Source of the DNA: Pyrodictium abyssi
GTDB lineage: Archaea > Thermoproteota > Thermoprotei_A > Sulfolobales > Pyrodictiaceae
Assembly: GCF_036323395.1 (NCBI RefSeq)
Contig: NZ_AP028907.1
Span: 1,170,001 to 1,202,000, forward strand
Direction of reading: 5' to 3'
DNA length: 32,000 nt
The translations under genes were made by a program, and so were the position numbers. This document shows positions 7,703 to 20,988 of this stretch, in pieces (positions within the stretch are counted from its first letter, which is position 1; the number at the start of each line of letters is the position of its first letter). The notes under the pieces are model-generated. The model was not told the DNA's origin. It searched no databases and saw nothing but the letters and a program-made list of their open reading frames with translations.

Positions 7703-8305
7703 CTAGCTCCGCGGAGGCAGAATAGCGCCCTTAGTGGACACTACGCCGCTGCTGGGCGACAGGGCCTGCCGCAGAGCCATGCCCAGCGCCTTGAAGGCCG
7801 CCTCGGCCACGTGGTGATCGTTCCCACCGCGGAGCGTGACCACGTGCAGGGTCATCCCGGCGGCCGCGGCCAGGCTCTGCAGGAAGTGCGGAATATTCTC
7901 CGTCGCTAGGCCCCCTATAGCCTCGCGGCGCAGGGGCAGCTCCACCCAGGCCCCAGGCCGCCCCGAGTAGTCCACAGCCACCAGCACAAGCGCCTCGTCC
8001 ATAGGCACCACAGCGTAGCCGAAGCGCGCTACCCGGTAGCCCCCAGAGGCCACAGCCCGGGCCACAGCCTCGCCCAGCGCCAGCGCCAGATCCTCAGCCA
8101 CGTGGTGGTCATCCACACGCTTAACCTCCTCCACGGCTGCGCGGAGACCCCAGCCAGCGTAGTACGCCAGAGTCTCCACCATGTGGTCCAGGAACGGTAC
8201 ACCGGTCGATACACTGGTCTCCCGCAGCTCCTCTCGGTCCAGGTCCAGGTCCACAATCACCCTGGTCTCCTTTGTCCGGCGCTCAACCTTTACCCGGCGA
8301 GCCAA
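7703..8305 (-). CDS. hisB: Imidazoleglycerol-phosphate dehydratase
   Basis: VERRTKETRV.VDLDLD, GVPFLDHM and DDHHVAEDLALALG. The ORF is open to 8407, but the first 34 codons are non-homologous. The TTG at 8305 gives a canonical ~200-aa IGPD. Confidence 0.9.
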   Translation of the reverse strand: MARRVKVERRTKETRVIVDLDLDREELRETSVSTGVPFLDHMVETLAYYAGWGLRAAVEEVKRVDDHHVAEDLALALGEAVARAVASGGYRVARFGYAVVPMDEALVLVAVDYSGRPGAWVELPLRREAIGGLATENIPHFLQSLAAAAGMTLHVVTLRGGNDHHVAEAAFKALGMALRQALSPSSGVVSTKGAILPPRS

Positions 8306-9034
8306 TACAGCACACCCGGGGCCACAGAGGCCAGGCCGCCGGGTAATAGGTCCAGGGGACGGCCCAGCCGTACACGCTGTCTCGAAACAGAGGCCAGGCA
8401 GGCGCACAGGTACACCAGCCCACAGGTAAGCACACCCAGCTAACTATAGCATGCCCAAAACAACACAGCACACGTACACCAGCAGCAGAACAAAACAGCG
8501 CAAGCTACAATATGCGACAAGGCATACAGTATACTTTACACCGGCACCGCTAGAGTCGCACTATATTGCAACTTATTATCAAGGGTGCTTATACTGGGCT
8601 TGTCTTACCTGTGCCCGGGCTTAGCTGTAGCCGGGCCCCGCTACATGTTACCCCAGCGTGCACCAGGCAAGCCAGGCGCTGTAACAGTGAGACCTCCGGT
8701 AGTTAGTTAAGGAGAACCAGGTATAGACGAATTGTATACTTTAGACGTGCGCCCGGCATATAAGTGGCAAACTGCACAGTAAAACTACATGGAGAACAGA
8801 TACGGAGAAAGGTTTGAGAGGTGAACCCGTCTGTGAACAAGCTCGTATACATACTCGTACCCCTAGCGGTCGCCGCGCTAGCAGCCGCAGGCTACGTCTA
8901 CCTAGGAGGCGGAGAAGCAGCCCCAGCGACACAGACAGCAGCCACCGCTGCGCCGGCCGCGACGCAGACAGCTGCACCCCGGGGCGCCCGGGCAGGGCCA
9001 CGGCCCCGGCGCCGGCGGAGGCCCGGCAAGGGGC

Positions 9035-9589
9035 GTGGCTACCAGCGTGCAGCAGCTCCCAGCGCAGCCGCTCTCCGAGGACGAGAAGGAGAGCCTACTC
9101 TACATGGTGGAGGAGAAGCTAGCCCGTGACGCATACAACAGGCTAGCCGAGATGTACCCCGACGTACCAGTGTTCGCCAACATAGCGAGGAGCGAGCAGC
9201 AGCACGTAGACTCCGTGATGCAGCTAATAGAGAAGTACGGGCTCGACGTAGAGCTAGGGCCGCCCGGTGTGTTCCACAACCAGGAGCTACAGAGCCTCTA
9301 CAACGAGCTAGTAGACCGCGGCTCCAAGAGCCTAGAAGAAGCACTGAAAGTGGGCGCACTGATAGAGGAGAAGGACATAGTAGACCTAGAGGAATGGCTC
9401 GCTAAGACCGACAACGAGGACATCAAGCTAGTCTACGAGAACCTAATGCACGGCAGCTTCAACCACCTATGCGCCTTCACAAGGACCATGAAAAGCATGC
9501 TAGGCGTAGACTACAAGCCAGTACTCCTCGACGAAGAGACATACAACAGCATCATATCCAGCTGCCAGATGGGCGGCCCCAAGCGCTAA
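9035..9589 (+). CDS. DUF2202 ferritin-like domain protein (possibly 5'-truncated by a frameshift; see findings)
   Basis: LSEDEKESLLYMVEEKLARDAYNRLAEMYPDVPVFANIARSEQQHVDSVMQLIEKYGL is the typical DUF2202 signature. GTG start at 9035. Confidence 0.8.
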   Translation: MATSVQQLPAQPLSEDEKESLLYMVEEKLARDAYNRLAEMYPDVPVFANIARSEQQHVDSVMQLIEKYGLDVELGPPGVFHNQELQSLYNELVDRGSKSLEEALKVGALIEEKDIVDLEEWLAKTDNEDIKLVYENLMHGSFNHLCAFTRTMKSMLGVDYKPVLLDEETYNSIISSCQMGGPKR

Positions 9590-10121
9590 AGGAATACAGA
9601 GAGAACACAGCCCCAGGGCACAACCCCCTACACAGCACCAACACCCCGACACACGCCACACGCATGAACGTATTTTCTCGCCCCAGGCAGGGACAAGCCC
9701 TCTGCCAGACACCACAGCGAGCGTTAGTGTTACCGTATTCAGTTAGCCTCGGAATACAGCATCTATGGGCAATGTCAGGTCAACGGATTGACCCAAGGTC
9801 TTCGCTGTCACTAAGAATTGATGACAGAAAGGTTAAGTACATGCAGTCAGGCAAGTGATAATCAATAGAGCTGACGGGAGAGGCCTATCCTGTTACAGTC
9901 CTGCATCATGTTAAATACTTTGGCGGGCTGAGAATGCTTTAGGATTTAGTAAAGCATGAATTGAAGCCACCGTCAAATGGACAAAGTGAGATTCAGAGAG
10001 CAAGCATGAAGCTCGTTGCGGGAATTACGGAATCAACAAATTTAGTTGTTTATGAAGTAAGGCGTGTTGAAACGCAGTGTAATTGATTGCTACTATGTGG
10101 CTGAGAATGATTAGACAGAGT

Positions 10122-11129
10122 CTAATTCTCTGCTATGTTATTTGGATGCTGTTTAAGCGATTCTACTAGCTCTTTCACCTTTTGCCAGCATAGGTATTCT
10201 CTCGACAGTCTAGCCAGTTCATTATCTATGTTGGCTACTTCTTTCCAGTCCACACAGCGCAAATATTGGTCATTAGCTAAATCTATGGAAAAGACCCTTA
10301 GGACAAGATATGTGATTATTCCACTGACATCGATAAACTTGTTGAGGTATTTCAGCAGGTATTCGGGAACGGGTTCAAGTTCTATCCAATCCCTATAGGT
10401 AGCAATTCTAGCACCCGTCTCCAAGAATCTGGGATGAACACGGTGTGCATGTCCAGAGAGTTCGCTGTAATAGTCATGTATTATTTTAAAAAGATGGCCA
10501 TCTATAATGCCCCAGTTCTTTAACTGTTCTAGAAGCTTGGCGAATGCAGCACTTGGATTAAAATCTGTCAGCTTACTTTCCATTAAGTCAAACAAGTATG
10601 CTGATGGTACAATTCTACTATCTCCTATTTCTTTCTCGATAAGCTCTAGCAGCTCTTTAAAGCTCTTAGCAGCTTTAAAGCCATTTATCTTCTTCAGATT
10701 CACTGCATTCTTACGGTATTGCGGTATTGCCAGTAGGTCAAAGATTATGCCACGGATAACACTCTCTAGCGCATTACGCAGTTCGCTGAAAGCTACACTG
10801 TAATAGCCTGTAAGAGCTGATAGAAGAGAATACCTCATAAGCATTACAGCATCATAATGATAGACTATTAGTGCTGTATGTAGTTGCCAAAACTCGTTGA
10901 AGATCTCCTCGTTGCATACATTTTTTGAAGGCATAAGACCAACAATTAATTCTCCAGAGCTGTTCATTGCACTCATTAAGTTATCAATTATCTCAGCCAC
11001 GCTCAACGTGCTATAAACCGATGGTAAAGCCTCAATATTATCGCTCACTTTGCTAATGTGAGTGCTCATATTTTTTGAATATGTATAGTACAAAATCGGT
11101 AATTCGTGCAAGCTTACGTAAAGTTTCAT
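10122..11129 (-). CDS. Hypothetical helical protein, a distant member of the same family as 12304-13038 and 13255-14037 (HEPN/DUF4145-like, tentative)
   Basis: 335-aa AT-rich ORF. It shares two blocks with the paralogs: LTGYYSVAFSELRNALESVIRGIIFDL and GIIDGHLFKIIHDYYSELSGHAHRVHP. Compare ALRQILEAITIAVYMD and YGLLSSYIHPF in the 13255 protein. Confidence 0.6.
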   Translation of the reverse strand: MKLYVSLHELPILYYTYSKNMSTHISKVSDNIEALPSVYSTLSVAEIIDNLMSAMNSSGELIVGLMPSKNVCNEEIFNEFWQLHTALIVYHYDAVMLMRYSLLSALTGYYSVAFSELRNALESVIRGIIFDLLAIPQYRKNAVNLKKINGFKAAKSFKELLELIEKEIGDSRIVPSAYLFDLMESKLTDFNPSAAFAKLLEQLKNWGIIDGHLFKIIHDYYSELSGHAHRVHPRFLETGARIATYRDWIELEPVPEYLLKYLNKFIDVSGIITYLVLRVFSIDLANDQYLRCVDWKEVANIDNELARLSREYLCWQKVKELVESLKQHPNNIAEN

Positions 11130-11467
11130 CCTCGTTCTTATTATTGTTACTCCGTAGCTCCACAGCTATCCCTAAGCTCTTTATAGACAACCAAGAAGCT
11201 ATATTTAAATTTTATAGTATAATTTCCTCGATTACTCTGTAAAAGGGCTCATACAAGGACAAGGGATGACCGTATAATGGTTCCGTATAATGATAGGAAA
11301 CCACGAGACACTTAGTCTGACGCTTTAGAGTCCATAATCTGCAGAATCTAGCTCTATGCACGATACGTCGGTAACCGGGATGAGCTTGAATGAAATAGCC
11401 CTGTAAGAATCCAAGAAGCTAGATATCAGCTTACAAGCACTTCATGTTATAATGATTGGCGTGATTC

Positions 11468-11983
11468 TTATAATGAGCTTTTTATCCTTAACGCTGGCCC
11501 TAATTGATAGCACATTATAATTCTTCTCGAGTTGTCTAGCATGATTTTTAGGGTGATAATGTTGAGGGCTTTCCTGGAGGCAAGTAATGTCCCAGCCAGC
11601 AGGCTGGCTAGGAGGAGTTTAGCAGCCGTTTGGATGTAGCTGGCCTTTTCTACTAGCTGACTATAGGCTTCTGGTCGAAGACGCCGTGCTACATTGTCTA
11701 CGAGATGTTGTGCTACATGCTCGTCGAGGACCAGAGCGCTAGAATAGAGTGCCCTCATAGCATAGCTTTTGCCGGTATTCGGTGGGCCTAGGGGCAGGGT
11801 CACGTCTCCTAGCGATAGCTCTGCGCTTCGGACGGGGCCGAAGTTCTCTAGGATAAGCTTCACTGGAGGTTCCCCTGCATATAGCCGCTGCACTCCTAGC
11901 CCTACCGGGCAGGGGCGACGCCCTATCAGCCTACCGTCACGCTCACAGCATGCCATTCTCCTGGGCGGTACATGAGACAGCAT
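11468..11983 (-). pseudogene. N-terminal relic of a P-loop (SMC/ABC-like AAA) ATPase
   Basis: VKLILENFGPVRSAELSLGDVTLPLGPPNTGKSYAMRAL is the N-terminal strand plus Walker A of an AAA_15/21/23-type ATPase. The ORF stops after ~170 aa with no Walker B or signature motif downstream. Its 5' part is distinctly GC-richer than the surrounding island. Confidence 0.5.
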
Positions 11984-12303
11984 AAGCAGAAACCTTCTAA
12001 GGGTACATGAGGAGCGACTATCCTGTAGCTTGGGTTATTGCCCTTCTCAGGGCCGTCTCAGAGGACTGGTACCTAACTAAACATGGCTCTAATCTATGCC
12101 TAGCTCCTTGCTTGGCCCCGACAACAGTCAGCCGGCCAAGTGCGAACCGTAGCCTGATTCCCGGATGATGGGCGGGCTTAATTTGCGGGACTTTTTTATA
12201 GCAGATCCTGGCAACTGGTAATGAAACGGATGAGATGCATGCATGAGATAATGTTGGTAAGGCTGAGCACTTAAGGGATGTATCCGATGAGCTTGATTCA
12301 CTT

Positions 12304-13038
12304 GTGGAAATGGAGTATGGGCTTGTATGGGCTGCATGCAAGTATGGTCTAGAGAATTTCAAGTACGCGGCGAGGAATGCTCGTGGGTTTATTCAGTCTT
12401 GTAGCGAGCTATCGGATACAGTTGAAGAGGTCTTCATGAAGTATTTTGTTGATATCGAGGATAACCTAGTAGGGGAGACTGTAACGCCTGCGGCACTACT
12501 CTACGTTATCGTGCCTCTAGGGTTTTTGTCCTATGTTTGCACGGTGGCTCTTCATGGCGCGTTGCCTTATGCAGCGGCTGGCCTAAGGCTTATTGTTGAA
12601 GCATTAACACTATCAGTATATGTTGATACTAAGTTTCCGGATAAAAGCTATGAGGAAAAACTAGACCTAATGTCAGAGAAGTATAATACATTTAGTGCCG
12701 TTGCTGAGGAGCTAAGAAGGTATGCAAAGATAGATAATAGACTTATAGATGACGTTATTACTGTATGGCGTGAAACATCAGCCTATCTCCACTTTGTTAA
12801 TCGTGCCCGAAGGGCTGGTGCGAAAGGCATACTCCGCCTAGTCGAGAAATATGTAGAGGAGCACGGTGCTCCTCCAAGCGGCTTCACTATACCGTTGCCA
12901 ACAGAGTTCCTCTTCGAGCATGATGCCAAGGAGCTAAGAAGGCTGGAAGAACTAATTAGATTAGTTACCAAGATTGTGCCTGGACTCCTTGAAGCCTGGG
13001 CAAGAACGCTCAGAGAGCACAGAGCTGGAGCTAACTAG
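12304..13038 (+). CDS. Hypothetical helical protein, paralog of 13255-14037 (HEPN/DUF4145-like, tentative)
   Basis: 244 aa. It is clearly alignable to the next gene: FMKYFVDIED / FLKYFVYIEE; LSYVCTVALHGALPYAAAGLRLIVEALTLSVYVDT / PGYVCTSILQAAIPLAYFALRQILEAITIAVYMDT; WRETSAYLHFV / YGLLSSYIHPF; EEHGAPPSGFT / DEHGIPPTFAT. Confidence 0.7.
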   Translation: MEMEYGLVWAACKYGLENFKYAARNARGFIQSCSELSDTVEEVFMKYFVDIEDNLVGETVTPAALLYVIVPLGFLSYVCTVALHGALPYAAAGLRLIVEALTLSVYVDTKFPDKSYEEKLDLMSEKYNTFSAVAEELRRYAKIDNRLIDDVITVWRETSAYLHFVNRARRAGAKGILRLVEKYVEEHGAPPSGFTIPLPTEFLFEHDAKELRRLEELIRLVTKIVPGLLEAWARTLREHRAGAN

Positions 13039-13284
13039 TTCTCCTATTCTTGGTTATGGCCGGAGACCGATACTGGATAACATCGGTGGTTGCAGTTACA
13101 AGTGAGTTTGTTGAAGAGTCACTGAGAAGAACTTGATTGATGCAAGCGTGTTATTCACTGTGTAGCTAGTCTCTAATAGCTGATAGGCTGATAGTATGTA
13201 TTGTGAAAAATATAAATAGATAAGAATGCTAGCTAGATACTGTCAAGCCGTGAAGTGTATACATGGCTGGAGGGATCTGATGGG

Positions 13285-14037
13285 ATGAAGTTAAAGGAGG
13301 AGCGTGGGGAGTTTGAGCAATTGAAGCGCTTTTACGTTGAGAATAGCTGCGAGGTAGCGCATAGTAACTTTAACTACATCCTTAAGATTGATAAAGGCTT
13401 GATCATAGCCTGTGACGAGTTCTATGAAATATGCATAGAGTTGTTTCTCAAGTACTTTGTATACATAGAGGAAAGTATAAAGGGAATCGACCCGGAGACA
13501 TACTTTAAGAGATATCTCCTGCCCTCCGTGCTTTTCTACATAGTAGCGCCGTTTCCTGGCTATGTGTGTACAAGCATACTCCAGGCCGCAATACCCCTTG
13601 CATACTTTGCGCTTAGGCAGATACTTGAGGCAATTACAATAGCCGTGTATATGGACACATGTCCGAGGTACAAGAACCTAGACTATGAAAGAAAGGCAAG
13701 GGAGGCCAGAAGGCTCACATTCTCTGATACACTTGGCTACTTTGAGCGGATAGACAGAGGACTCGCAGAGAACCTCAGAAGACTCTACGGTCTCCTCTCG
13801 AGCTACATACATCCCTTTGCCAGGAAGGGCCTGGGAGGTCTTGTGAGCCTTGCCGACAGATCGCTAGACGAGCATGGTATTCCTCCAACCTTCGCAACTG
13901 CATTTGCATTATCAAAATACACGGGAGGTAAGGCCGACGAGACTGAGCTTGCCAGGTTAAAGAAAACGATATATGAGACAGCTAGGCTAGTCATAGAACT
14001 AATAAACGTATGGCTCATGTACATTGCCAGAGGGTAA
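13285..14037 (+). CDS. Hypothetical helical protein, paralog of 12304-13038 (HEPN/DUF4145-like, tentative)
   Basis: The ORF is open from the GTG at 13255. The ATG at 13285 is preceded by GGAGGG. An AAAATATAAATAG TATA-like box lies at ~13209-13221. Paralogy evidence is given for the previous feature. Confidence 0.7.
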   Translation: MKLKEERGEFEQLKRFYVENSCEVAHSNFNYILKIDKGLIIACDEFYEICIELFLKYFVYIEESIKGIDPETYFKRYLLPSVLFYIVAPFPGYVCTSILQAAIPLAYFALRQILEAITIAVYMDTCPRYKNLDYERKAREARRLTFSDTLGYFERIDRGLAENLRRLYGLLSSYIHPFARKGLGGLVSLADRSLDEHGIPPTFATAFALSKYTGGKADETELARLKKTIYETARLVIELINVWLMYIARG

Positions 14038-14062
14038 CTGCAGAAAACGGGACTGGCATAGT

Positions 14063-15034
14063 TTATATCAGAAAGGTGTGCAGTTCCACGGATAGGTTTC
14101 TTGCTGCTAGGTCTACAGTATCTATTCGTCCCTCGGCTATCAGTTCTAGTAGCTTTTCAGCTGTTAGCTTAGCTTTATCTTCTCTTGTTATCCTCCTAGC
14201 AGCTTCTAGGATTGGTTTTAGGTTATCCTTTGAGAGCGTATGTATTGCTTCGCGTGCCTCTTCTTCAAGATTTTCTCGCAGAGCTCTTGCTAGTAGCTCT
14301 GTCGGTGTTTTGCCGTCTGTGCGTACTATTATTACTGCTATGGGTTTGTCCCGATGATGTCTTGCCAGTAATTTTGCGTAGCGTGCTGCCTGTAGTAATG
14401 GATTATGGCTCGCCGTTGCTATAGTTCCTTCCTCGGGAGTCTTTATTTCAAAAACTACTGCCATGCCAGTACAGTCTACATAAAGGTCTAGCCTTGCTCC
14501 AGTCGCAAAGTAGTGCTCCAAGTTTACAGTTTCACAGTCGGGAGGAAGTAAACTGCAAAGAACATGTTTTAACGCCTCCTTGAATGTCTCTCCGTCAAGC
14601 CTTAGAGTGAAGAGTGTGTCCAAGATTATTATGAGCTTTTCTGCGGTATTGTCTGAGGGTATTAAACTGAGTAGCTGCCCTACATGTGCCGCTACGTCTG
14701 TAGGACTTATTCCCGTCGAATACTGCATAGTATGATGTTGACTTCTGCATCTTACTGTAAGTGCATCCCAAGGTATGCTATCGTAGTGTTGCAGCCTCAT
14801 CACTTTGAGTCCTCTAACACTATGTCTAACAATGTAGGCTTTCCATTTCTCCTCAAGCTTTTCAGCAGCTTCAGGACTTATTGTCTCTACTTTCCTTACT
14901 ATGTTTCTATAGGTCTCTAGGGGCACGCAGACCAAGTCACCTACGTTCTCGCCTAACGATGATAGGATTATCTCAGACAGTGCGAGGTAGAGGGCTGTTT
15001 TGTCAACCGTTTTCCGCCTCGTTTTCCTCCTCAA
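14063..15034 (-). CDS. PD-(D/E)xK nuclease-fold protein with a basic N-terminus and a helical C-terminal tail
   Basis: 323 aa. The TTG start lies 4 nt after the stop of the upstream gene and is preceded by GGAGGT. The core is E173-H..ARLD183LYVD186...VVFE196IK198, followed by LLQAARYAKLL and PIAVIIVRTDG. This order is typical of PDDEXK/Rpn-like nucleases. The N-terminus is MRRKTRRKT. Confidence 0.7.
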   Translation of the reverse strand: MRRKTRRKTVDKTALYLALSEIILSSLGENVGDLVCVPLETYRNIVRKVETISPEAAEKLEEKWKAYIVRHSVRGLKVMRLQHYDSIPWDALTVRCRSQHHTMQYSTGISPTDVAAHVGQLLSLIPSDNTAEKLIIILDTLFTLRLDGETFKEALKHVLCSLLPPDCETVNLEHYFATGARLDLYVDCTGMAVVFEIKTPEEGTIATASHNPLLQAARYAKLLARHHRDKPIAVIIVRTDGKTPTELLARALRENLEEEAREAIHTLSKDNLKPILEAARRITREDKAKLTAEKLLELIAEGRIDTVDLAARNLSVELHTFLI

Positions 15035-15038
15035 GCGC

Positions 15039-16367
15039 TCATACCTCCGAGGCTATTTCGTTGGCGATTTTTGTCTTGGTAAGCTGTATAGAGTCCCTTA
15101 GTGGTTCGAGGAGAAGGCTTCTGATTTCCTCTCTAATCCGGCTTTCAGACATACTTGAGTAGGTGAACATGGAGAGATTAAGCATGTTTATGCCAAGATA
15201 GTTGTAAGTTGAGTTATTTATAGCTAAGCTTCTAGTCTCGGCCGGCACAGCGCCTACTATTAGATCAAGATCGAGTCCATTGCGTGGCAATCTGAGGGAG
15301 AAGAATGTTATTTGGGGCGTTCCCTTGGCCTCAAGATCGTTAAAGAATTCGTCAGGATCCTTGTAGTTTAGTAGTTGCGCTGCTACTTCTTCTGCTGACA
15401 CCTTTCTATCAGGACCTATTATGCCCCCATACGCTATTATACGATACTTTATCCCACTCACGCGAAGTACAACAGCTTTGCCGCCACGCCTTTTTACTTG
15501 ACCGTATAGGGCTTTCGCCAGCCTATTGGGGCCAATAGCGTTTATAACATCATAACCTGTTAACGTATCTACATCCCTGTTACTAGCATAACGTATTATC
15601 GCTTGAAACGCTGCTGTGAACGTTCTAACTTGTTTGGTTATAATACTTGGCCCATACAAGCGGACCTCTATTCCGCTTATATCGCTATTTGGACTCACTA
15701 AAGCTATTCCAGCAGGCTGGTAGCTTGTGAAACGTATGCTCGGGGAGCTAAGATTTAGAGTCCCTCCTATCGACACTCCAAGGTTTACCACACGTAGAGA
15801 TCCTGAAGCAAGCAGAAGTGGTATCCAATCTCGTCCTCCCACTCTTATATAGGGGCTATCTCGTCTAGTTAAGGGTAGAATCCATAAATTAGTGCCCCTA
15901 TAGCTATACATGAAGCCTCTCTCATAAACTACTAATGCAGCCCTTCTATCTACTTGTCTATTTGTAACGAGCTCTCCTCTATTAACCTCAAATTCCAGCC
16001 TTGTGCTATCAACGGGTTTAAGCGTTGCCTCGTTGCTCGGGAGTATACCTGCAACCATATCATCTATAAGCTCGCTAGGTCTAGCGTTTTGAGGAAATAA
16101 GAATACTATACGCCCTCTTGAATAAAGGTTAAGTTCCTGATTATTCTTAATATCGTCAACTATACTTTGTATGAGGTCCTCTTGGTGTATCTTTCCAAGA
16201 CACTCATACCTACCAAGAGGCCTCTTTTTAATTGATGTATAGCAGTCAGCTAGCTGTTGCAAAGTCTTGGTGGGAGTGGCTTGTTGCAGAAACACATAGT
16301 AGGGTATAGCGTCTGCAGAGAACTTCCTTATTGTGCTGGACATGCCTACCCCTATAGTGGCTAACAC
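15039..16367 (-). CDS. Unknown beta-rich protein; candidate divergent, catalytically inactive short Argonaute (MID-PIWI-like). This is a hypothesis from motif order only.
   Basis: 442-aa ORF from the GTG at 16367; the ATG at 16343 gives 434 aa. An ATATATAAT TATA-like box lies at 16378-16386. Ordered motifs (aa numbering from 16367):
- YYVFLQQ (23-29).
- RIVFLFPQ (86-93).
- ILPSN (108-112).
- RGTNLWIL (157-164; compare the PIWI motif K-L-G-G-x-x-W-x-L).
- NLGVSIGGT (195-203).
- AVVLRVSG (298-305; compare the hRDG strand, which is HVSG in Archaeoglobus Piwi).
There is no P-loop and no DEDX set. Confidence 0.45.
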   Translation of the reverse strand: MLATIGVGMSSTIRKFSADAIPYYVFLQQATPTKTLQQLADCYTSIKKRPLGRYECLGKIHQEDLIQSIVDDIKNNQELNLYSRGRIVFLFPQNARPSELIDDMVAGILPSNEATLKPVDSTRLEFEVNRGELVTNRQVDRRAALVVYERGFMYSYRGTNLWILPLTRRDSPYIRVGGRDWIPLLLASGSLRVVNLGVSIGGTLNLSSPSIRFTSYQPAGIALVSPNSDISGIEVRLYGPSIITKQVRTFTAAFQAIIRYASNRDVDTLTGYDVINAIGPNRLAKALYGQVKRRGGKAVVLRVSGIKYRIIAYGGIIGPDRKVSAEEVAAQLLNYKDPDEFFNDLEAKGTPQITFFSLRLPRNGLDLDLIVGAVPAETRSLAINNSTYNYLGINMLNLSMFTYSSMSESRIREEIRSLLLEPLRDSIQLTKTKIANEIASEV

Positions 16368-16448
16368 TATAGGTGAGATATATAATGCTGCAGTACTATT
16401 GAGCCAGCTAGGCCAACTAAGGCGTCTCTAAGTTCCATAGCACCATAA

Positions 16449-16679
16449 TCATCGCATGCATCTACTACCATCCCCTAGAAGCCTCATGGTGGTTTGATCG
16501 AGGCTTACCAGCTCGAGTCTGATTCTCTTCCTGTCTAGCTCGTATTCTCTTGTTGCCTCGGCTTCGTCGGGGAGGGGTTCATCTACGCCTAGAAGCCTTT
16601 CCTCTAGCAGGGCCTCGATCCGCTTCAGCGTAGCCTGGAGACCGCGTATCTCCTCTAGTAGCTGTTTCTCTACAGACAA
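16449..16679 (-). CDS. Small coiled-coil protein (antitoxin-like archaeal family), uncertain
   Basis: 76 aa with a TTG start. LLEEIRGLQATLKRIEALLEERLLGVDEPLPDEAEATREYELDRKR..ELVSL resembles small archaeal helical proteins that end in a ...vsLeel motif. It is GC-richer than its neighbours. Confidence 0.4.
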   Translation of the reverse strand: MSVEKQLLEEIRGLQATLKRIEALLEERLLGVDEPLPDEAEATREYELDRKRIRLELVSLDQTTMRLLGDGSRCMR

Positions 16680-16789
16680 GCTACTAGGGCACCCCGTTGC
16701 TACGGTATGAGCAGGCTCTGGGGGCGGTTAAGCTGCTCCTTCTATCTTCACGTCCTGGCCTCTAGCCTTAGGGAAATACATGGAAACAA

Positions 16790-17545
16790 TTAGAGCAGCC
16801 TAACTATAAACGAGTCCAGGTCTGTGTCCTCCAAGCCGTCTTGTATGCCTGCTATCAGCTCCCGCAGCATAGCCCTCCATGCCGGGTCAGCATTGTCTAT
16901 AAGATGCTTCACCTTCTCCACCACAACTGTCACTCCAGCCTCCTTCACATTTCTTGGCAACTCTCCTTCAACTACCTCATGGCAGTGCTTTCTCACGTCT
17001 TTATCACAGTATTCTACACTAGTAATGGGACTTCTCGGCACTACTAGTGCTATCCAGCATTCCGCACTACATTTCCACGACGCTATGCATATCTTAGGTC
17101 TGTCAGGCCGCCTAATACATAGTGACGCAAAGTACTTACCTCCGTGCTGTATTGGTTGAACTTCTTTATCCTTCTTGTTTCTCACAATGATCTCTTGTAT
17201 GATTTTCCAAAGTCTTTGATAATACTCGTTTGCCCTATCAGTAGGCCTATCTGAATCGCTATCCACTATTACCGCCAGACACACTTCTGCATTAGGGACA
17301 GACCGAATGAATGCTTCAGTGGCTTTAATTATTTCTTTCGTGGCATCCCTTACATTCTTTATCCCTCCGGCTGGATATATAGCAATGCATCCTGCATCGA
17401 GGAAGCATTCCCACATGTATTCTTTTATTTCTTCTATGTTACTGGAATAGTAGAGGTCATAGTTATCCGAGACCGCAGCACCTAAGAGATAGACGTCATA
17501 CAATCCCTCTGTTACTATGATCGCGTATTTACAGCCACTTAGCAA
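16790..17545 (-). CDS. TOPRIM-like (DUF4435/OLD-type) putative nuclease, partner of the upstream ABC ATPase
   Basis: 251 aa. The TTG start is preceded by AGGAGGTG, 36 nt after the ATPase stop. The pattern AIIVTEGLYDVYLL (TOPRIM Glu) ... IYPAGGIKNV ... LAVIVDSDSD (DxDxD) matches the DUF4435/OLD TOPRIM layout. Confidence 0.65.
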   Translation of the reverse strand: MLSGCKYAIIVTEGLYDVYLLGAAVSDNYDLYYSSNIEEIKEYMWECFLDAGCIAIYPAGGIKNVRDATKEIIKATEAFIRSVPNAEVCLAVIVDSDSDRPTDRANEYYQRLWKIIQEIIVRNKKDKEVQPIQHGGKYFASLCIRRPDRPKICIASWKCSAECWIALVVPRSPITSVEYCDKDVRKHCHEVVEGELPRNVKEAGVTVVVEKVKHLIDNADPAWRAMLRELIAGIQDGLEDTDLDSFIVRLL

Positions 17546-17581
17546 CGCTATGCACCTCCTGCTATGCTATTGACTAGGGAG

Positions 17582-19183
17582 CTATATGCCGCGCAACTCT
17601 ATACCTATTTCCTTTGCCTCTAAGATCTCTCTGCCCTTAAATACTGAGTATACCTCTCCGTTCGACATCAAGACAGTCTTAACCTTGTCGAGAACACCAT
17701 GCCTCATAGCTCTTTTGGCGATAAAGCGTATCAGCTCCATGCTATGAGTGCTGAGCAACACAAGAGCACTAGGATTCTCTTTAGTAGCTCTCGCTATGCT
17801 ATCTGCAAGTACCATTAAGTAGCCTGGGTGGAGTCCAGTCTCGGGCTCTTCAAGGATAAGTACTGTCTGGGGCTGCCTCCTAGCTAGAACTAGACCTGCT
17901 AGCAAGGCTAATAGCAGCAGGGTACCATCGCCGAGTAACGCTGCAGGTATTCTCATACCGTCCTTTCTCAGAAGGACTTCATTCTCTTTAATGATAGGAT
18001 CCTCTAGATTGAGACTTCTGATGCTTCTAATAACGTTACCATAGTCTCTAAGGAGTCCAAGATCATGAACTTTGTCTACTATTTTCTCTAAGGTATTTGC
18101 GCCAAAGATTTCATGGCGGATAACAGTACTTCTTCGAAATACTGTGTAAACATTCCATTCCGTCTTTTCATTGGCCTTTCCATCGTTGAGGTTTACTCTG
18201 TACTGTGCTGTCCATAAGTTATCTATAGTCCTTCTCAGTTTCTTCCATATACACCGCCTAATCATTTTTCCTAGTTCTTTACCTAGCTGGAGCTTAGCGT
18301 AGACTGAATATAAGTCTTTTAATTCAGCTCTCTCTAAGATTATCCCTGTCATATTTATTATGTTACGTACGAAGACTGCTTCAAGATTACTAAGTTCTTC
18401 GTAGTATTGTTTCTCCTTGCTTACACCCATTCTAAAGCGTGGCAAGTATAAGTAGGATGATCCATTCAGCTTTATAACTATGCTATCATCTATGATTGGC
18501 CTAATTATCCTGTTGACATGCTCCCTTAGGGTTAATGCTGCAGATTTTAGGGCAGGCTCACTTTTGTATATACTTCTCGCTAAACTTTCTGGAAGCAATA
18601 TAGGTTGTACTATTTTTTCTATCGATAACCTTTCTTCACAAGTTGATTCTGCAAGATGAGCTATAATGTACCCTATAGTGAACATTATCGTTGTTAACGC
18701 TTCACCCTCTCTAGTGTAGCTAGCAAAGGCTTTTCTGAGACATCTGTATGCTTCGCCTTCACTTGTCAGCTCATCGTAGAGGCTTTCTCTGATTTTTTGA
18801 AGCATCATACATAGGAATTGATTATTTATTGTGCTATTTGGCTTAGCTATCCTTACTATTCGGGCGCCTTGGTCATCCATCTTGAGATTTAGATTTATGG
18901 TTGCCTCTTCTCTGCATGTCAAGTTCAATAGCCTACTTGGGTGCCCAGCGAGCTTGTCGTCTATTATCATGCGGGCTATGTCGTTGCCGAGCCAGTCTTG
19001 TAGGCTAGGTGCTGAGAATGCGAGGGCTAATGCCTCGAGGACTGAGGATTTGCCGGCGTTATTCCTGCCGGTGAGTATAGTTATCGGAGCCAGCTCTAGC
19101 TTAACCTCTTTTACTCCTCTGAAGCACTTGATCTTGGCTACGCCAATAGGGCTATCCTGCTTGGTCTCTTTTGCTTGCTCCAT
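17582..19183 (-). CDS. ABC-type AAA ATPase of the AAA_15/AAA_21 (OLD N-terminal / AriA / RloA-like) family
   Basis: 533 aa. Walker A TGRNNAGKSSVLEAL, a long helical insert, a signature-like LLGDGT, Walker B VLILEEPETGLHP and H-loop LLSTHS. Confidence 0.9.
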   Translation of the reverse strand: MEQAKETKQDSPIGVAKIKCFRGVKEVKLELAPITILTGRNNAGKSSVLEALALAFSAPSLQDWLGNDIARMIIDDKLAGHPSRLLNLTCREEATINLNLKMDDQGARIVRIAKPNSTINNQFLCMMLQKIRESLYDELTSEGEAYRCLRKAFASYTREGEALTTIMFTIGYIIAHLAESTCEERLSIEKIVQPILLPESLARSIYKSEPALKSAALTLREHVNRIIRPIIDDSIVIKLNGSSYLYLPRFRMGVSKEKQYYEELSNLEAVFVRNIINMTGIILERAELKDLYSVYAKLQLGKELGKMIRRCIWKKLRRTIDNLWTAQYRVNLNDGKANEKTEWNVYTVFRRSTVIRHEIFGANTLEKIVDKVHDLGLLRDYGNVIRSIRSLNLEDPIIKENEVLLRKDGMRIPAALLGDGTLLLLALLAGLVLARRQPQTVLILEEPETGLHPGYLMVLADSIARATKENPSALVLLSTHSMELIRFIAKRAMRHGVLDKVKTVLMSNGEVYSVFKGREILEAKEIGIELRGI

Positions 19184-19369
19184 AGCCCTCCCACTCCACC
19201 TACAGGCTACAATGCATTATACCGTTTCAAAACCATGAGTGTCGATGCCGGGTTCGATACCGTGAGCTTTCGGCTGTGGAGGGTTCATAGCTGTACTGGT
19301 CTTTGCGGCTCTTAAGTACCCTGCCCGGGAATGTGTGGCGTTGCTGGTGCTCGGGGTCTTTTGCAGTCT

Positions 19370-20116
19370 TTATAGTATGCCTAGTGGGTTGAGCCGCCAG
19401 GTGTAGAGGGCCATGCCTGCTACTGCCTCGTCGTAGCCCATGGCGGCGAGGAGCTCTAGGTCCCGGGGGCCCGCTATGCCCCCGCTGTATGCTAGCCGGG
19501 GTGCGCCGGCCTCCCGGGCCTGCCGGGCTAGCCTGGCTGCGCGGTGGAGGTCTACGCCGCGCTGCTCGCCCTCGTGGAAGACCTGGGTGTAGAATAGCCC
19601 CCAGATGCCGCGGGTGCTTGCTGCCTGCTTCACGGCCTCGGCTAGGGTCATGGGCTCCCTGCTGCGCCACGCGCTTGTGGCGGGTAGCGCGTCCCAGTGC
19701 TCCTCGACGGCTGGGACCAGTACGCCGGGGCCTAGCGCGTCCACGGCCTCCTGGAGGAACTCGGGGCGGCGGAGCCACGCGCTCGCGACCACCAGGCGGT
19801 CGGCGCCCGCGCTGTGGGCCTCTTCTAGGGCGTCTATGCTCCGGAGCCCGCCGCCTAGCTGTATCGTGGCCCCTGTCTCCCTCTTGGCCCACTCCACGAG
19901 CTCTAGGACGCACCTGCTAGGCCTGCCCCTGGCCGCGCCGTCCAGGTCGACTATGTGGAGGACCGTGGCGCCGAGGCTGTGCCAGAGCAGGACGAGGCGC
20001 CGTGGGTCTCCGAGGCGTAGCCCGGTGCCGGGCACGCCCCGGACCAGCTTGACGGCCTCGCAGCCGGCCACGTCTATGCTGGGTACGAGCCGGGGCCTGG
20101 AGAGGAGGCTTGGCAT
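19370..20116 (-). CDS. hisA: ProFAR isomerase (HisA)
   Basis: The ATG at 20116 lies 2 nt after the hisG stop; the ORF is open to 20233, but that extension is R/P-rich. Motifs VPSIDVAGCEAVKLVRG, LHIVDLDGA, IQLGGGLRS and AYSGGIAG. Confidence 0.9.
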   Translation of the reverse strand: MPSLLSRPRLVPSIDVAGCEAVKLVRGVPGTGLRLGDPRRLVLLWHSLGATVLHIVDLDGAARGRPSRCVLELVEWAKRETGATIQLGGGLRSIDALEEAHSAGADRLVVASAWLRRPEFLQEAVDALGPGVLVPAVEEHWDALPATSAWRSREPMTLAEAVKQAASTRGIWGLFYTQVFHEGEQRGVDLHRAARLARQAREAGAPRLAYSGGIAGPRDLELLAAMGYDEAVAGMALYTWRLNPLGIL

Positions 20117-20118
20117 GG

Positions 20119-20988
20119 CTAGGGTATCACCCTGTCCACGCTGAGCACTAGTATGTCGCGGGCGCCGCGCCGCCGGGCCTCGACGAGGACGTGGGCTAGC
20201 CTGTCCTCCGGCACCACTGTTATCACCTCCCACATGGGCCGGGGGCCCTCCACCCTGGCTATCGTGGGCCCCGACATCGAGGGGAGCGCCTCTACTACGC
20301 GCTGTAGGGCCTCCTCCGGCACGTTCATGAGTACTAGCTTGTAGCCCCGGGCCCGTAGCACGCTCCTCACAGCCTCGACGATGACCTCTACGAGGGGGTC
20401 CTCTGGGTCTACGTGGCTGCCCCGGATCAGCTTGGCCTCTGTCCGCATGACCTCGGCTACTACGCGTAGCCCGTGCAGCCTAAGTGTGGTCCCGGTCGAG
20501 GATACGTCGAGTATGGCGTCTGCCACGCCGAGCCTGGGCATGGCCTCGGCGGAGCCTGTTATCCTGATTATCCTCGCCCTGACCCCTAGCTTCTCGAAGA
20601 ACCTCCGGGCTATGTTGACGAACTTGGTCGCCACCCGGACCCCGTCGGGGAGGTCTCTTGGGCTCTCCACCGGCGCCTCCTCGGGCACTGCTACCACGAG
20701 GCGGGCGCGGCCGATGCCCAGGCCCTCGACTATCTCCAGGCCCTCGCCGCTGTGCTCCTCTATGTAGTCGAGCCCCGTGATGCCGAGCTCTGCGCCGCCC
20801 GCAGAGACTATCGCCGGTATGTCCTCGGGCCGGACGTAGACCAGGGACACGTTCTCCCAGTTCGTGGGCACTATCAGCGCGCGGGTCGCGTCGGGGCTGT
20901 AGAGGGGCTCTATGCCCGCAGCCTCTAGTAGGCGGAGCACAGGGTCCCTTAGCCGGCCCTTGCTGGGAACCGCTATCCTCACACCCAC
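20119..20988 (-). CDS. hisG: ATP phosphoribosyltransferase (long form)
   Basis: 289 aa with a GTG start. RIAVPSKGRL..P.L.LLE.AGI, the central PRPP-binding region (DVSSTGTTLR) and a C-terminal regulatory-domain-sized tail. Confidence 0.95.
   Translation of the reverse strand: MGVRIAVPSKGRLRDPVLRLLEAAGIEPLYSPDATRALIVPTNWENVSLVYVRPEDIPAIVSAGGAELGITGLDYIEEHSGEGLEIVEGLGIGRARLVVAVPEEAPVESPRDLPDGVRVATKFVNIARRFFEKLGVRARIIRITGSAEAMPRLGVADAILDVSSTGTTLRLHGLRVVAEVMRTEAKLIRGSHVDPEDPLVEVIVEAVRSVLRARGYKLVLMNVPEEALQRVVEALPSMSGPTIARVEGPRPMWEVITVVPEDRLAHVLVEARRRGARDILVLSVDRVIP

Follow-up and report, generated by a model that had tools for sequence, protein, structure and literature searches.

The 32,000-nucleotide (nt) stretch of the Pyrodictium abyssi genome analyzed here (NZ_AP028907.1, positions 1,170,001-1,202,000; hereafter the window, to which the coordinates below refer) carries two adjacent genes encoding a 533-amino-acid (aa) ABC ATPase and a 251-aa cysteine-rich partner protein. 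From comparisons of its sequences we classify this locus as a Cys-rich archaeal variant of the architecture in which an ABC ATPase is followed by a DUF3226 protein—that of the candidate defence system PDC-M38—and not as the PARIS (AriA/AriB) system proposed for it in an earlier sequence-only reading. We infer that the locus is a horizontally mobile two-gene cassette serving in defence, in which an ATPase sensor is combined with a metal-dependent nuclease, an account that we think probable though by no means assured.

To our knowledge, pairs of an ABC ATPase and a small nuclease (OLD, Gabija, PARIS, AbiL and HEC-01) are a major element of prokaryotic immunity, and nearly all experiments on them have been bacterial. 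The cassette described here carries the theme of ATPase plus partner over to organisms that grow near 100 °C, in a version whose ATPase insert is much larger and whose putative effector is Cys-rich. Its architecture is a familiar one; its partner family is nearly an orphan, is chemically unusual, and has no structural match detected in the Protein Data Bank (PDB) or BFVD.

The two genes and the ATPase

The ATPase gene (17582-19183, minus strand) is a 533-aa open reading frame (ORF) with an ATG start, and the partner gene (16790-17545, minus strand) is a Cys-rich 251-aa ORF with a TTG start. The two are transcribed in the order ATPase to partner across a 36-nt spacer (17546-17581, minus strand), within which a Shine-Dalgarno (SD)-like sequence, AGGAGGTG (17553-17560, minus strand), can be read directly in the sequence 7 nt ahead of the partner TTG. 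Both genes are intact, and their coordinates, their separation and the spacer motif are exactly those given in the sequence-only reading, as are all of the motifs that it quoted: GRNNAGKSS, LLGDGT, ILEEPETGLHP and STHS in the ATPase, and IIVTEG (residues 9-14), YPAGGIKNV (57-65) and VIVDSDSD (92-99) in the partner. Because full-length homologues exist for each protein (86-32% identity for the ATPase, 68-23% for the partner), the two ORFs are real genes and not chance occurrences. An N-terminal (M/L)LxxC retained across the partner family speaks for the TTG start.

Several other features of the region were considered and set aside. The partner sequence 'MLSGC' was ruled out as a lipobox, the motif lying at the extreme N-terminus with no preceding signal peptide, and two antisense ORFs (16824-17159 and 18831-19238) were rejected as genes for want of supporting evidence. 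A 76-aa ORF downstream of the partner (16449-16679) shows no homology to the 93-aa ORF that relatives carry and was rejected as a third component; since it is not conserved, we treat the module as consisting of two genes.

The 533-aa protein matches the Pfam families AAA_21 (2.2e-22) and AAA_15 (7.5e-22), both over their cut-offs. When scanned against the component models of PADLOC (the results are matches to individual models, with no system-calling rules applied), it matches AriA, HEC-01A, NsnB, PDC-M38A, AbiLi, PDC-M07A, Old, MAD3 and GajA near-equally. Its closest solved relative by sequence is TsOLD (PDB 6P74, E = 5.6e-5). It can be assigned on these grounds to the OLD/AriA/GajA type of ABC ATPases (AAA_15/AAA_21).

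Eight archaeal homologues of the ATPase were found, and in the resulting alignment of nine ATPases, which reaches down to 26% identity, each of the nucleotide-binding motifs is conserved. In the Walker A motif or P-loop (GRNNAGKSS, residues 39-47; 19043-19069, minus strand), G39, N41, G44, K45, S46 and S47 are invariant; in the ABC signature-like LLGDGT (residues 416-421; 17921-17938, minus strand), G418, D419 and G420; in the Walker B motif and D-loop (ILEEPETGLHP, residues 443-453; 17825-17857, minus strand), E446, E448, G450, H452 and P453; and in the H-loop (STHS, residues 478-481; 17741-17752, minus strand), S478, T479 and H480. Between the two lobes lies an insert of about 280 aa (residues ~116-395), which is largely missing from P0015, a 342-aa bacterial relative; the alignment thus bears out the presence of the long insert described earlier, and concerns its presence rather than its helicity. 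The insert is less conserved than the ATPase lobes (majority fraction 0.42-0.50 versus 0.65-0.69). It is because of inserts of ~200-280 aa that the archaeal ATPases (485-586 aa) are longer than their bacterial relatives (~340-360 aa).

Weak matches of the ATPase to SMC_N, RecF, Rad50 and an archaea-specific SMC-related protein could be taken to indicate a housekeeping DNA repair ATPase of the SMC/Rad50/RecF kind with an accessory subunit. The scores are, however, far under the respective cut-offs (SMC_N 25.5 bits against 40, RecF 27.6 against 172, and Rad50 15.8 against 700), and the protein does not group with housekeeping ABC/SMC proteins, a result that would have told against the sequence-only reading. 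A repair function would also have to be reconciled with the location of the gene in a low-GC (guanine plus cytosine) island and with the extreme rarity of the family, which comprises 13 clusters in 1.84 billion proteins and has no member confirmed by signature in 185,579 GTDB representatives. We regard this explanation as extremely improbable and, from the distribution of the family, as effectively refuted.

The partner protein and its family

The window partner has no match in Pfam or NCBIfam even at E ≤ 10, and specifically none at that level to DUF4435, OLD-like_TOPRIM, RloB or DUF4276. PHROGs yielded no match to it or to DUF3226, and its only PADLOC matches, which are weak (E = 0.003-0.01), are to PDC-M38B. 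Relatives are few: two came from a word-indexed search over 5.8 billion proteins and 13 representatives from an exhaustive HMMER profile search of the 1.84 billion representative proteins, and a search of the GTDB species-representative genomes with a signature pattern for the partner gave no confirmed relative. The named members of the family are from metagenome-assembled genomes (MAGs) of Crenarchaeota/Thermoproteota.

Conservation was counted in a 15-sequence alignment of the archaeal family (A3), with denominators of 13 to 15 according to position. Motif 1 (IIVTEGLYD; 17495-17521, minus strand), covering strand beta1 and the start of the following helix, contains E13, G14 and D17, which are present in 13/14 archaeal members and in 4/4 bacterial DUF3226 proteins. 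Motif 2 (VDSDSD; 17249-17266, minus strand) lies at the end of strand beta4 and contains D95, S96, D97 and D99; D95 and S96 are invariant, and D97 is kept in 13/15, with Asn in the other two. Motif 3 (SWKCSAECW; 17054-17080, minus strand) is the family signature, with W157, C159, C163 and W164 invariant and E162 in 14/15 (Asp in one). Motif 4 (C180-x4-R185-x2-C188-H189; 16979-17008, minus strand) has invariant C180 and C188, with R185 in 14/15 and H189 in 9/15. G61 is kept in 12/14 members, and P101 and R104 are conserved. The acidic motifs of E...DxD type to which the sequence-only reading had drawn attention are among the most conserved residues of the family, and the archaeal branch retains the acidic core (E13, D17, D95, D97 and E162).

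The family is also unusual in its cysteines. Further to those in motifs 3 and 4, C143 is invariant, C47, C53 and C89 are present in 14 members each, C5 in 12/13 and C153 in 11/15, giving 8-10 conserved Cys in all; among them are a CxxxC flanking E162 on both sides and a Cx7C-H. Cysteine makes up 4.0-5.7% of residues in the partner family but 0.8-1.5% of those in the cognate ATPases and 1.1-1.9% of those in DUF3226 proteins of bacteria, so that the partner family alone is enriched in it.

Relationship to DUF3226 and PDC-M38

When each of the 15 family members was scanned against Pfam, five gave sub-threshold matches to DUF3226 (PF11536), the best being that of P0019 (2.2e-5, 24.8 bits against a gathering threshold of 27 bits). 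These matches take in the EGxxD strand, the DSD strand and what lies between them (partner residues ~8-112, profile positions 2-83). Profile-profile comparison with hhalign gave E = 3.1e-5 for the partner family against a single repaired DUF3226 protein (described below), and E = 3.7e-7 (Prob 92.9%, 105 columns) against an alignment of four DUF3226 sequences. The residues common to the archaeal family and bacterial DUF3226 are E13, G14, D17, G61, D95 and D97. At motif 2 the bacterial proteins have D-x-D-x-E, and at the position of motif 3 they have P-x5-G-T-L-E-D and lack the archaeal Cys and Trp. We conclude that the 251-aa partner very probably represents a divergent Cys-rich archaeal branch of DUF3226, its N-terminal half being the homologous part.

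The same gene order is found in bacteria. P0015, a weak relative of the window ATPase from a Candidatus Schekmanbacteria MAG, is followed by a DUF3226 gene (L012 5026-5837). This gene is frameshifted just ahead of its LDSD motif in each of L012, L013 and L021, and the gene caller retained only its C-terminal 162 aa. The repaired L012 protein is a full-length DUF3226 protein (54.5 bits), the start of which overlaps the stop of the ATPase gene (ATGA). It parallels the window partner at each motif: its motif 1 reads VYVIIEGVLDVAFL, against YAIIVTEGLYDVYLL in the window partner; in the second row of the comparison ALRNASGLTNI stands against IYPAGGIKNV, and in the third EAFIRTECQPEAVAIVLDSDEEP..R against EAFIRSVPNAEVCLAVIVDSDSDRP..R. 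An AAA_15/21 ATPase followed by DUF3226, with gaps of 1-5 nt, is also present in Thiomargarita, a Pseudomonadota MAG and a Lachnospiraceae MAG (85.8, 54.9 and 30.1 bits, respectively), so that with L012 the pair is seen in four bacterial lineages (the bacterial loci are L012, L022, L023, L024 and L014-16).

A fifth pair of AAA_21 and DUF3226 genes (L014 476-5217, also in L015 and L016) is located beside an MmeI-type methyltransferase/restriction gene. Its DUF3226 gene is cut off where the contig stops, leaving an N-terminal fragment that matches the DUF3226 profile at E = 3e-15, and the pair comes directly after the MmeI-type gene and a SLFN/HATPase/Fic-like gene. The PDC-M38 pair is embedded here among genes of defence type. 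A tblastn search of plasmids with P0015 gave no match.

The correspondence of this pair with PDC-M38 follows from P0015, which matches the PADLOC model PDC-M38A at 6e-45, and from its DUF3226 partner, which matches PDC-M38B models only; DUF3226 is thereby identified as the partner component of PDC-M38, and the orphan Thermoproteota family is tied to it. The window ATPase matches PDC-M38A at 1.7e-19, which is not its top match, and two other archaeal partners have no match to PDC-M38B at E ≤ 0.01. The window cassette thus appears to be a distant archaeal relative of PDC-M38. The two agree in gene order, with an ABC ATPase followed immediately by a small alpha/beta protein, and in the N-terminal core of the partner, hhhEGxxD ... 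xG(x)xN ... (V/L)D(S/A)D(x)(D/E)xP..R. They differ in that the matches of the window partner are weak and its C-terminal ~140 residues cannot be aligned, in that the archaeal partners have the 8-10 conserved Cys and SWxCSxECW whereas the bacterial ones do not, and in the larger archaeal ATPases and hyperthermophilic Thermoproteota hosts.

The PDC systems are 145 candidates that were nominated by 'guilt-by-embedding' in restriction-modification (RM), BREX and DISARM loci and are explicitly untested (preprint of Payne et al., 10.1101/2024.01.29.577857); according to the supplement of the same paper, one large ATPase family (FAM_00005) pairs with the partners of HEC-01, PDC-M07, PDC-M38 and PDC-M47. 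In the literature searched, neither DUF3226, PF11536 nor PDC-M38 is mentioned in a main text, and PDC-M38 occurs only in a supplementary table of 10.1101/2024.01.29.577857. The matches of the archaeal partners to PDC-M38B and to DUF3226 are the homology detectable for this family.

Comparison with PARIS and other ATPase-effector systems

PARIS acts as an AriA6:AriB3 complex from which AriB, a TOPRIM protein of the DUF4435 family (PF14491), is released by a trigger and then cleaves tRNA. If the window locus were a bona fide PARIS system, or a class 4 split OLD nuclease, its partner would be a DUF4435 TOPRIM protein freed from an AriA hexamer to cleave tRNA. There are several likenesses: the gene order is the same, with a split ATPase and effector of similar sizes; the ATPase is of the AAA_15/21 type with inserts, and its top PADLOC matches are labelled AriA; and the E-x3-D...D-x-D...E pattern of the partner resembles the catalytic residues E26, D30, D88, E90 and E122 of AriB (PMC11464382). 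An AriA-type AAA_15/AAA_21 ATPase is indeed located immediately upstream of the partner, though the 'AriA' models are probably generic, since they have 304 and 373 positions—the lengths of the Pfam AAA_21 and AAA_15 models—and HEC-01A, NsnB, PDC-M38A and AbiLi come close to them in score.

It is in the partner that the resemblance fails. None of the 15 family members matches DUF4435 (E ≤ 1) or RloB in Pfam, or AriB in PADLOC, so that the partner is not DUF4435-like; the lack of TOPRIM and DUF4435 matches is half of what the sequence-only reading itself had named as telling against it. Although the AriA-AriB structure is in the PDB (8UX9; PMC11464382), no AriB is among the 50 Foldseek PDB matches listed for the predicted partner structure, where nothing reaches E ≤ 0.001. 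The partner is also Cys-rich, and the homology that can be detected is to DUF3226. The identification of the locus as PARIS is accordingly abandoned here as very unlikely.

The general theme of an ABC ATPase with a separate TOPRIM effector has been described (10.1101/2024.01.29.577857; PMC10568477), and other systems were compared. OLD proteins of classes 1-3 (P2 Old, TsOLD and GajA; PMC10568477) likewise have an ABC ATPase with the Pfam domains seen in the window ATPase, in which the Walker A and B motifs of the OLD type are intact; in those proteins the ATPase is fused to a TOPRIM domain in one polypeptide, whereas here they are two separate genes, and the partner has no whole-domain similarity to the OLD TOPRIM. 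No UvrD-like helicase or reverse-transcriptase gene was found beside the window cassette. HEC-01 also consists of two genes, and the window ATPase matches HEC-01A at 8e-21 to 1e-12; the relation to HEC-01B is not significant (one family member, E = 0.015). AbiL, with an AAA_21 ATPase (AbiLi) and an RloB TOPRIM-like protein (AbiLii), has the same split architecture, and the window ATPase matches AbiLi at 7e-18, the difference being the lack of RloB matches among the partners. The C-terminal '...CFExW...' motif of RloB may resemble SWxCSxECW.

Predicted structure of the partner

The structure of the partner was predicted with AlphaFold2 (AF2). An input of 15 sequences gave a confident model, with a pLDDT (predicted local distance difference test) score of 87.4 and a predicted template modelling (pTM) score of 0.86; a prediction from three sequences (pLDDT 43.6) was discarded. 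The model consists of alternating strands and helices—b7-12, a15-25, b30-33, a37-47, b53-58, a62-82, b88-95 and a101-120—followed in the C-terminal half by a hairpin (b132-135/b139-144), a strand (b151-157) and a helical part. In the model E13 lies after beta1, D95 and D97 lie at the end of beta4, and the helix that follows beta7 is opened by E162. The strongest of the weak Foldseek matches (E ~0.006-0.03) are to designed P-loop-like folds and SIMIBI nucleoside triphosphatases, and no AriB, OLD, GajA or DnaG chain is among the 50 matches listed.

The TOPRIM fold defined by Aravind and colleagues in 1998 is said to be a four-stranded parallel sheet of order 2-1-3-4, with a Glu after beta1 and a DxD after beta3. 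The linear pattern of the partner, hhhEGxxD...hhhxxGG...hhVDSD...E, matches that of the OLD-family TOPRIM domains, for which the strings compared were LLVEGKTE...ICIVAVDGKGS...RILADCD of P2 Old, LLIEGPSE...IIKTDND of GajA and LLVEGYGD...CIAVVDCGGK of TsOLD. In a local hhalign comparison with a thin OLD TOPRIM core, motif 1 is in register with the Glu strand of the OLD/GajA TOPRIM (LLVEGxxE/D) at P = 0.004 with a merged profile and 0.013-0.016 per family, over 17-18 columns and with Prob 3-9%. The relatives of P2 Old in IMG/VR are 73-100% identical, too close for the construction of a TOPRIM profile. Single family members gave weak matches to OLD-like_TOPRIM (E = 0.18, 1/15), DUF3854 (0.049) and HEC-01B (see above).

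Compared with a canonical TOPRIM domain, the AF2 model has an additional beta-alpha unit separating the Glu from the DxD, and the spacing between the two is 82 aa in the partner versus 62 aa in AriB, the latter taken from its published residue numbers (PMC11464382). A TOPRIM core with an additional edge strand after beta1 would give a sheet order of 2-3-1-4-5, and such an order is consistent with the P-loop-like character of the weak Foldseek matches. The partner is not demonstrably a TOPRIM protein; these patterns suggest that it may have a fold of TOPRIM type.

These data bear on whether the partner is a nuclease at all. It might instead be a Cys-rich metal- or redox-sensing regulator, an adaptor or an antitoxin-like inhibitor, with the ATPase or an unlinked host factor acting as the effector. 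Such a role would suit the abundance of conserved cysteines (about four times the content of the cognate ATPases), the finding that no nuclease fold or family was matched significantly, and the fact that the top weak Foldseek matches are P-loop-like alpha/beta folds and not nucleases. The residues shared with the Cys-poor DUF3226 proteins, however, are acidic or Gly and are placed at strand ends (E13, G14, D17, D95 and D97), an arrangement typical of a catalytic site that depends on metal and not of a Cys-based sensor; the cysteines were added to them in this lineage only. A purely regulatory partner is for us an unlikely explanation.

Distribution and behaviour of the cassette

The partner gene follows the ATPase gene in each of the eight contexts available (the window, L002, L005, L007, L018, L019, L020 and L042), with gaps of 21-62 nt and unrelated neighbouring genes; the order of ATPase then small partner noted in the window is thus a conserved unit. 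The ATPases of the first seven are 485-586 aa long. In L042 (3297-3950) the ATPase gene call upstream of P0019 is only 217 aa, corresponding to the C-terminal part of AAA_21/AAA_15, with a 50-nt gap to the partner; this ATPase may be truncated or split. From locus to locus, identity between the ATPases tracks identity between the partners (Pearson 0.95, Spearman 0.86; 21 locus pairs, which are not independent of one another, though the trend is clear), and the partner evolves faster than the ATPase. The cassette is lower in GC than its flanks in six of seven loci, a foreign composition.

Tight coupling of two genes, a foreign GC content, a patchy distribution and neighbourhoods that vary would equally be features of a selfish toxin-antitoxin or addiction module that stabilizes the island without being antiviral, and Pfam describes AAA_21 as a 'putative AbiEii toxin' domain. 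Against this, those two-gene relatives with AAA_15/21 ATPases that have been tested (PARIS, Gabija and AbiL) act in phage defence, and the bacterial DUF3226 pair was nominated through its embedding in RM, BREX and DISARM loci, with one pair lying beside MmeI-type RM genes. Addiction and defence roles are moreover not mutually exclusive. We consider a purely selfish module decidedly unlikely.

In two of the divergent archaeal loci, L007 (2669-5937) and L018 (2957-6693), the cassette adjoins an EMG1 (PF03587) gene, which may be a recurrent insertion site or a coincidence. One ATPase relative, P0012 (486 aa; L009 3219-8352, also L010), lacks a Cys-rich partner, and is flanked instead by proteins of 540 and 535 aa with no Pfam match; these may be an alternative set of effectors serving that ATPase clade. 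The absence of the Cys-rich partner from this locus fits the idea that effectors are exchangeable.

Proposed mode of action

In the account that we favour—an ATPase sensor and a metal-dependent nuclease acting in defence—translation of the partner would be coupled to that of the ATPase through the strong SD sequence in the 36-nt gap. By analogy with PARIS, OLD/Gabija and HEC-01, the ATPase, as a dimer or oligomer, would act as regulator and as sensor of an invader-derived cue, probably by means of its variable insert, and would hold the partner in a complex or control it. Once triggered, the acidic cluster of the partner (E13, D17, D95, D97 and E162) would bind a divalent metal and cleave nucleic acid, and the outcome could be restriction of a virus or plasmid, or abortive infection. 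Most likely the role of the 8-10 conserved cysteines would be to provide Zn or Fe-S sites, or disulfides, by which the effector is stabilized or regulated at ~100 °C.

A number of observations weigh against this account. The window partner itself reaches no Pfam threshold, that of DUF3226 included, and the homology to DUF3226 is confined to the N-terminal ~110 residues, the C-terminal halves (~140 residues) being unalignable. PDC-M38 is a candidate only, and DUF3226 is experimentally uncharacterised. Searches for a nuclease fold were negative at several levels. At E ≤ 1e-3 the AF2 model had no Foldseek match in the PDB or BFVD, the A1, A3 and merged A6 profiles retrieved nothing but noise from PDB sequences (such as uL16, Rpo4 and ARF), and hhalign of the partner family against full-length P2 Old was negative (Prob 0.3%); the sole signal toward solved TOPRIM nucleases is the ~18-column alignment of motif 1. 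Outside the window, the neighbours of the cassette are mostly housekeeping genes and not defence genes. HEC-01, finally, gave no defence in assays (10.1101/2024.01.29.577857), and for this reason provides no functional precedent.

A more specific version of the proposal is that the partner founds an archaea-specific effector family with no structural representative so far, in which a DUF3226-derived acidic core is fused to a new Cys-rich module (SWxCSxECW, C-x7-C-H and other conserved Cys) carrying Zn or Fe-S beside the catalytic Glu. The partner would then be a nuclease gated by a metal cluster or by redox state under an OLD-type ATPase, and the cassette would represent a new class of hyperthermophile antiviral system; we put this forward as speculative, and as doubtful rather than likely. 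If true, it would provide a first functional handle on DUF3226 and PDC-M38. A metal cluster bound by the cysteines beside the active site would constitute a new regulatory principle for such systems, whereas if there is no such cluster the cassette adds another divergent example to an architecture already familiar. In either case it is a small, well-defined, thermostable two-protein system, with its conserved residues mapped for mutagenesis.

The island and neighbouring genes

The cassette forms the hisA-proximal end of a low-GC island (~9600-19230) of ~40-48% GC, as determined from window composition, with flanks of ~64-70%; the reading of the region as an archaeal island is upheld both by its host, P. 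abyssi, and by this difference. The island is situated within the his operon, between hisA and DUF2202/hisB. On one side of it are hisG (20119-20988) and hisA (19370-20233), and on the other DUF2202 (9035-9589) and hisB/IGPD (7703-8407).

No tRNA gene, Rfam family, long direct repeat or structured RNA was found at the locus, and none of the island genes scanned matches an integrase. The possibility of a tRNA-linked integrative element was rejected on the absence of a tRNA gene, a long direct repeat and an integrase match among the scanned genes.

The same his-operon site is occupied in L001/L002, where it carries the ATPase-partner pair, the 93-aa ORF and an ATPase_2 gene; the cargo in the metagenomic L001 is shorter than that of the window and different from it, and the region looks like a variable hotspot. 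Next to the cassette in the window are a 442-aa gene (15039-16367, minus strand) that had been called Argonaute-like, and a 323-aa gene (14063-15034, minus strand) with only sub-threshold hints of PD-(D/E)XK (PDDEXK_4, E = 0.024). The 442-aa protein has no match in Pfam, PADLOC, NCBIfam, PHROGs or PDB sequences, and both genes are absent from L001/L002. Since their adjacency to the cassette is not conserved there, a composite defence locus uniting the cassette with an Argonaute-like module is not supported.

Elsewhere in the island, a 171-aa ORF (11468-11983, minus strand) has an AAA_15-like N-terminus with the Walker A sequence GPPNTGKS (Pfam E = 0.0013; BLASTP against the 533-aa ATPase, E = 0.006), and is probably the remnant of a second ABC ATPase gene. 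Upstream of the cassette (19184-19260), inspection by eye reveals a TATA-like GGTATAATG ~40 nt ahead of the ATPase ATG and a GGGAGGG stretch 4-10 nt ahead of it, which are candidate archaeal promoter and SD elements, respectively, at the junction of the island with hisA.

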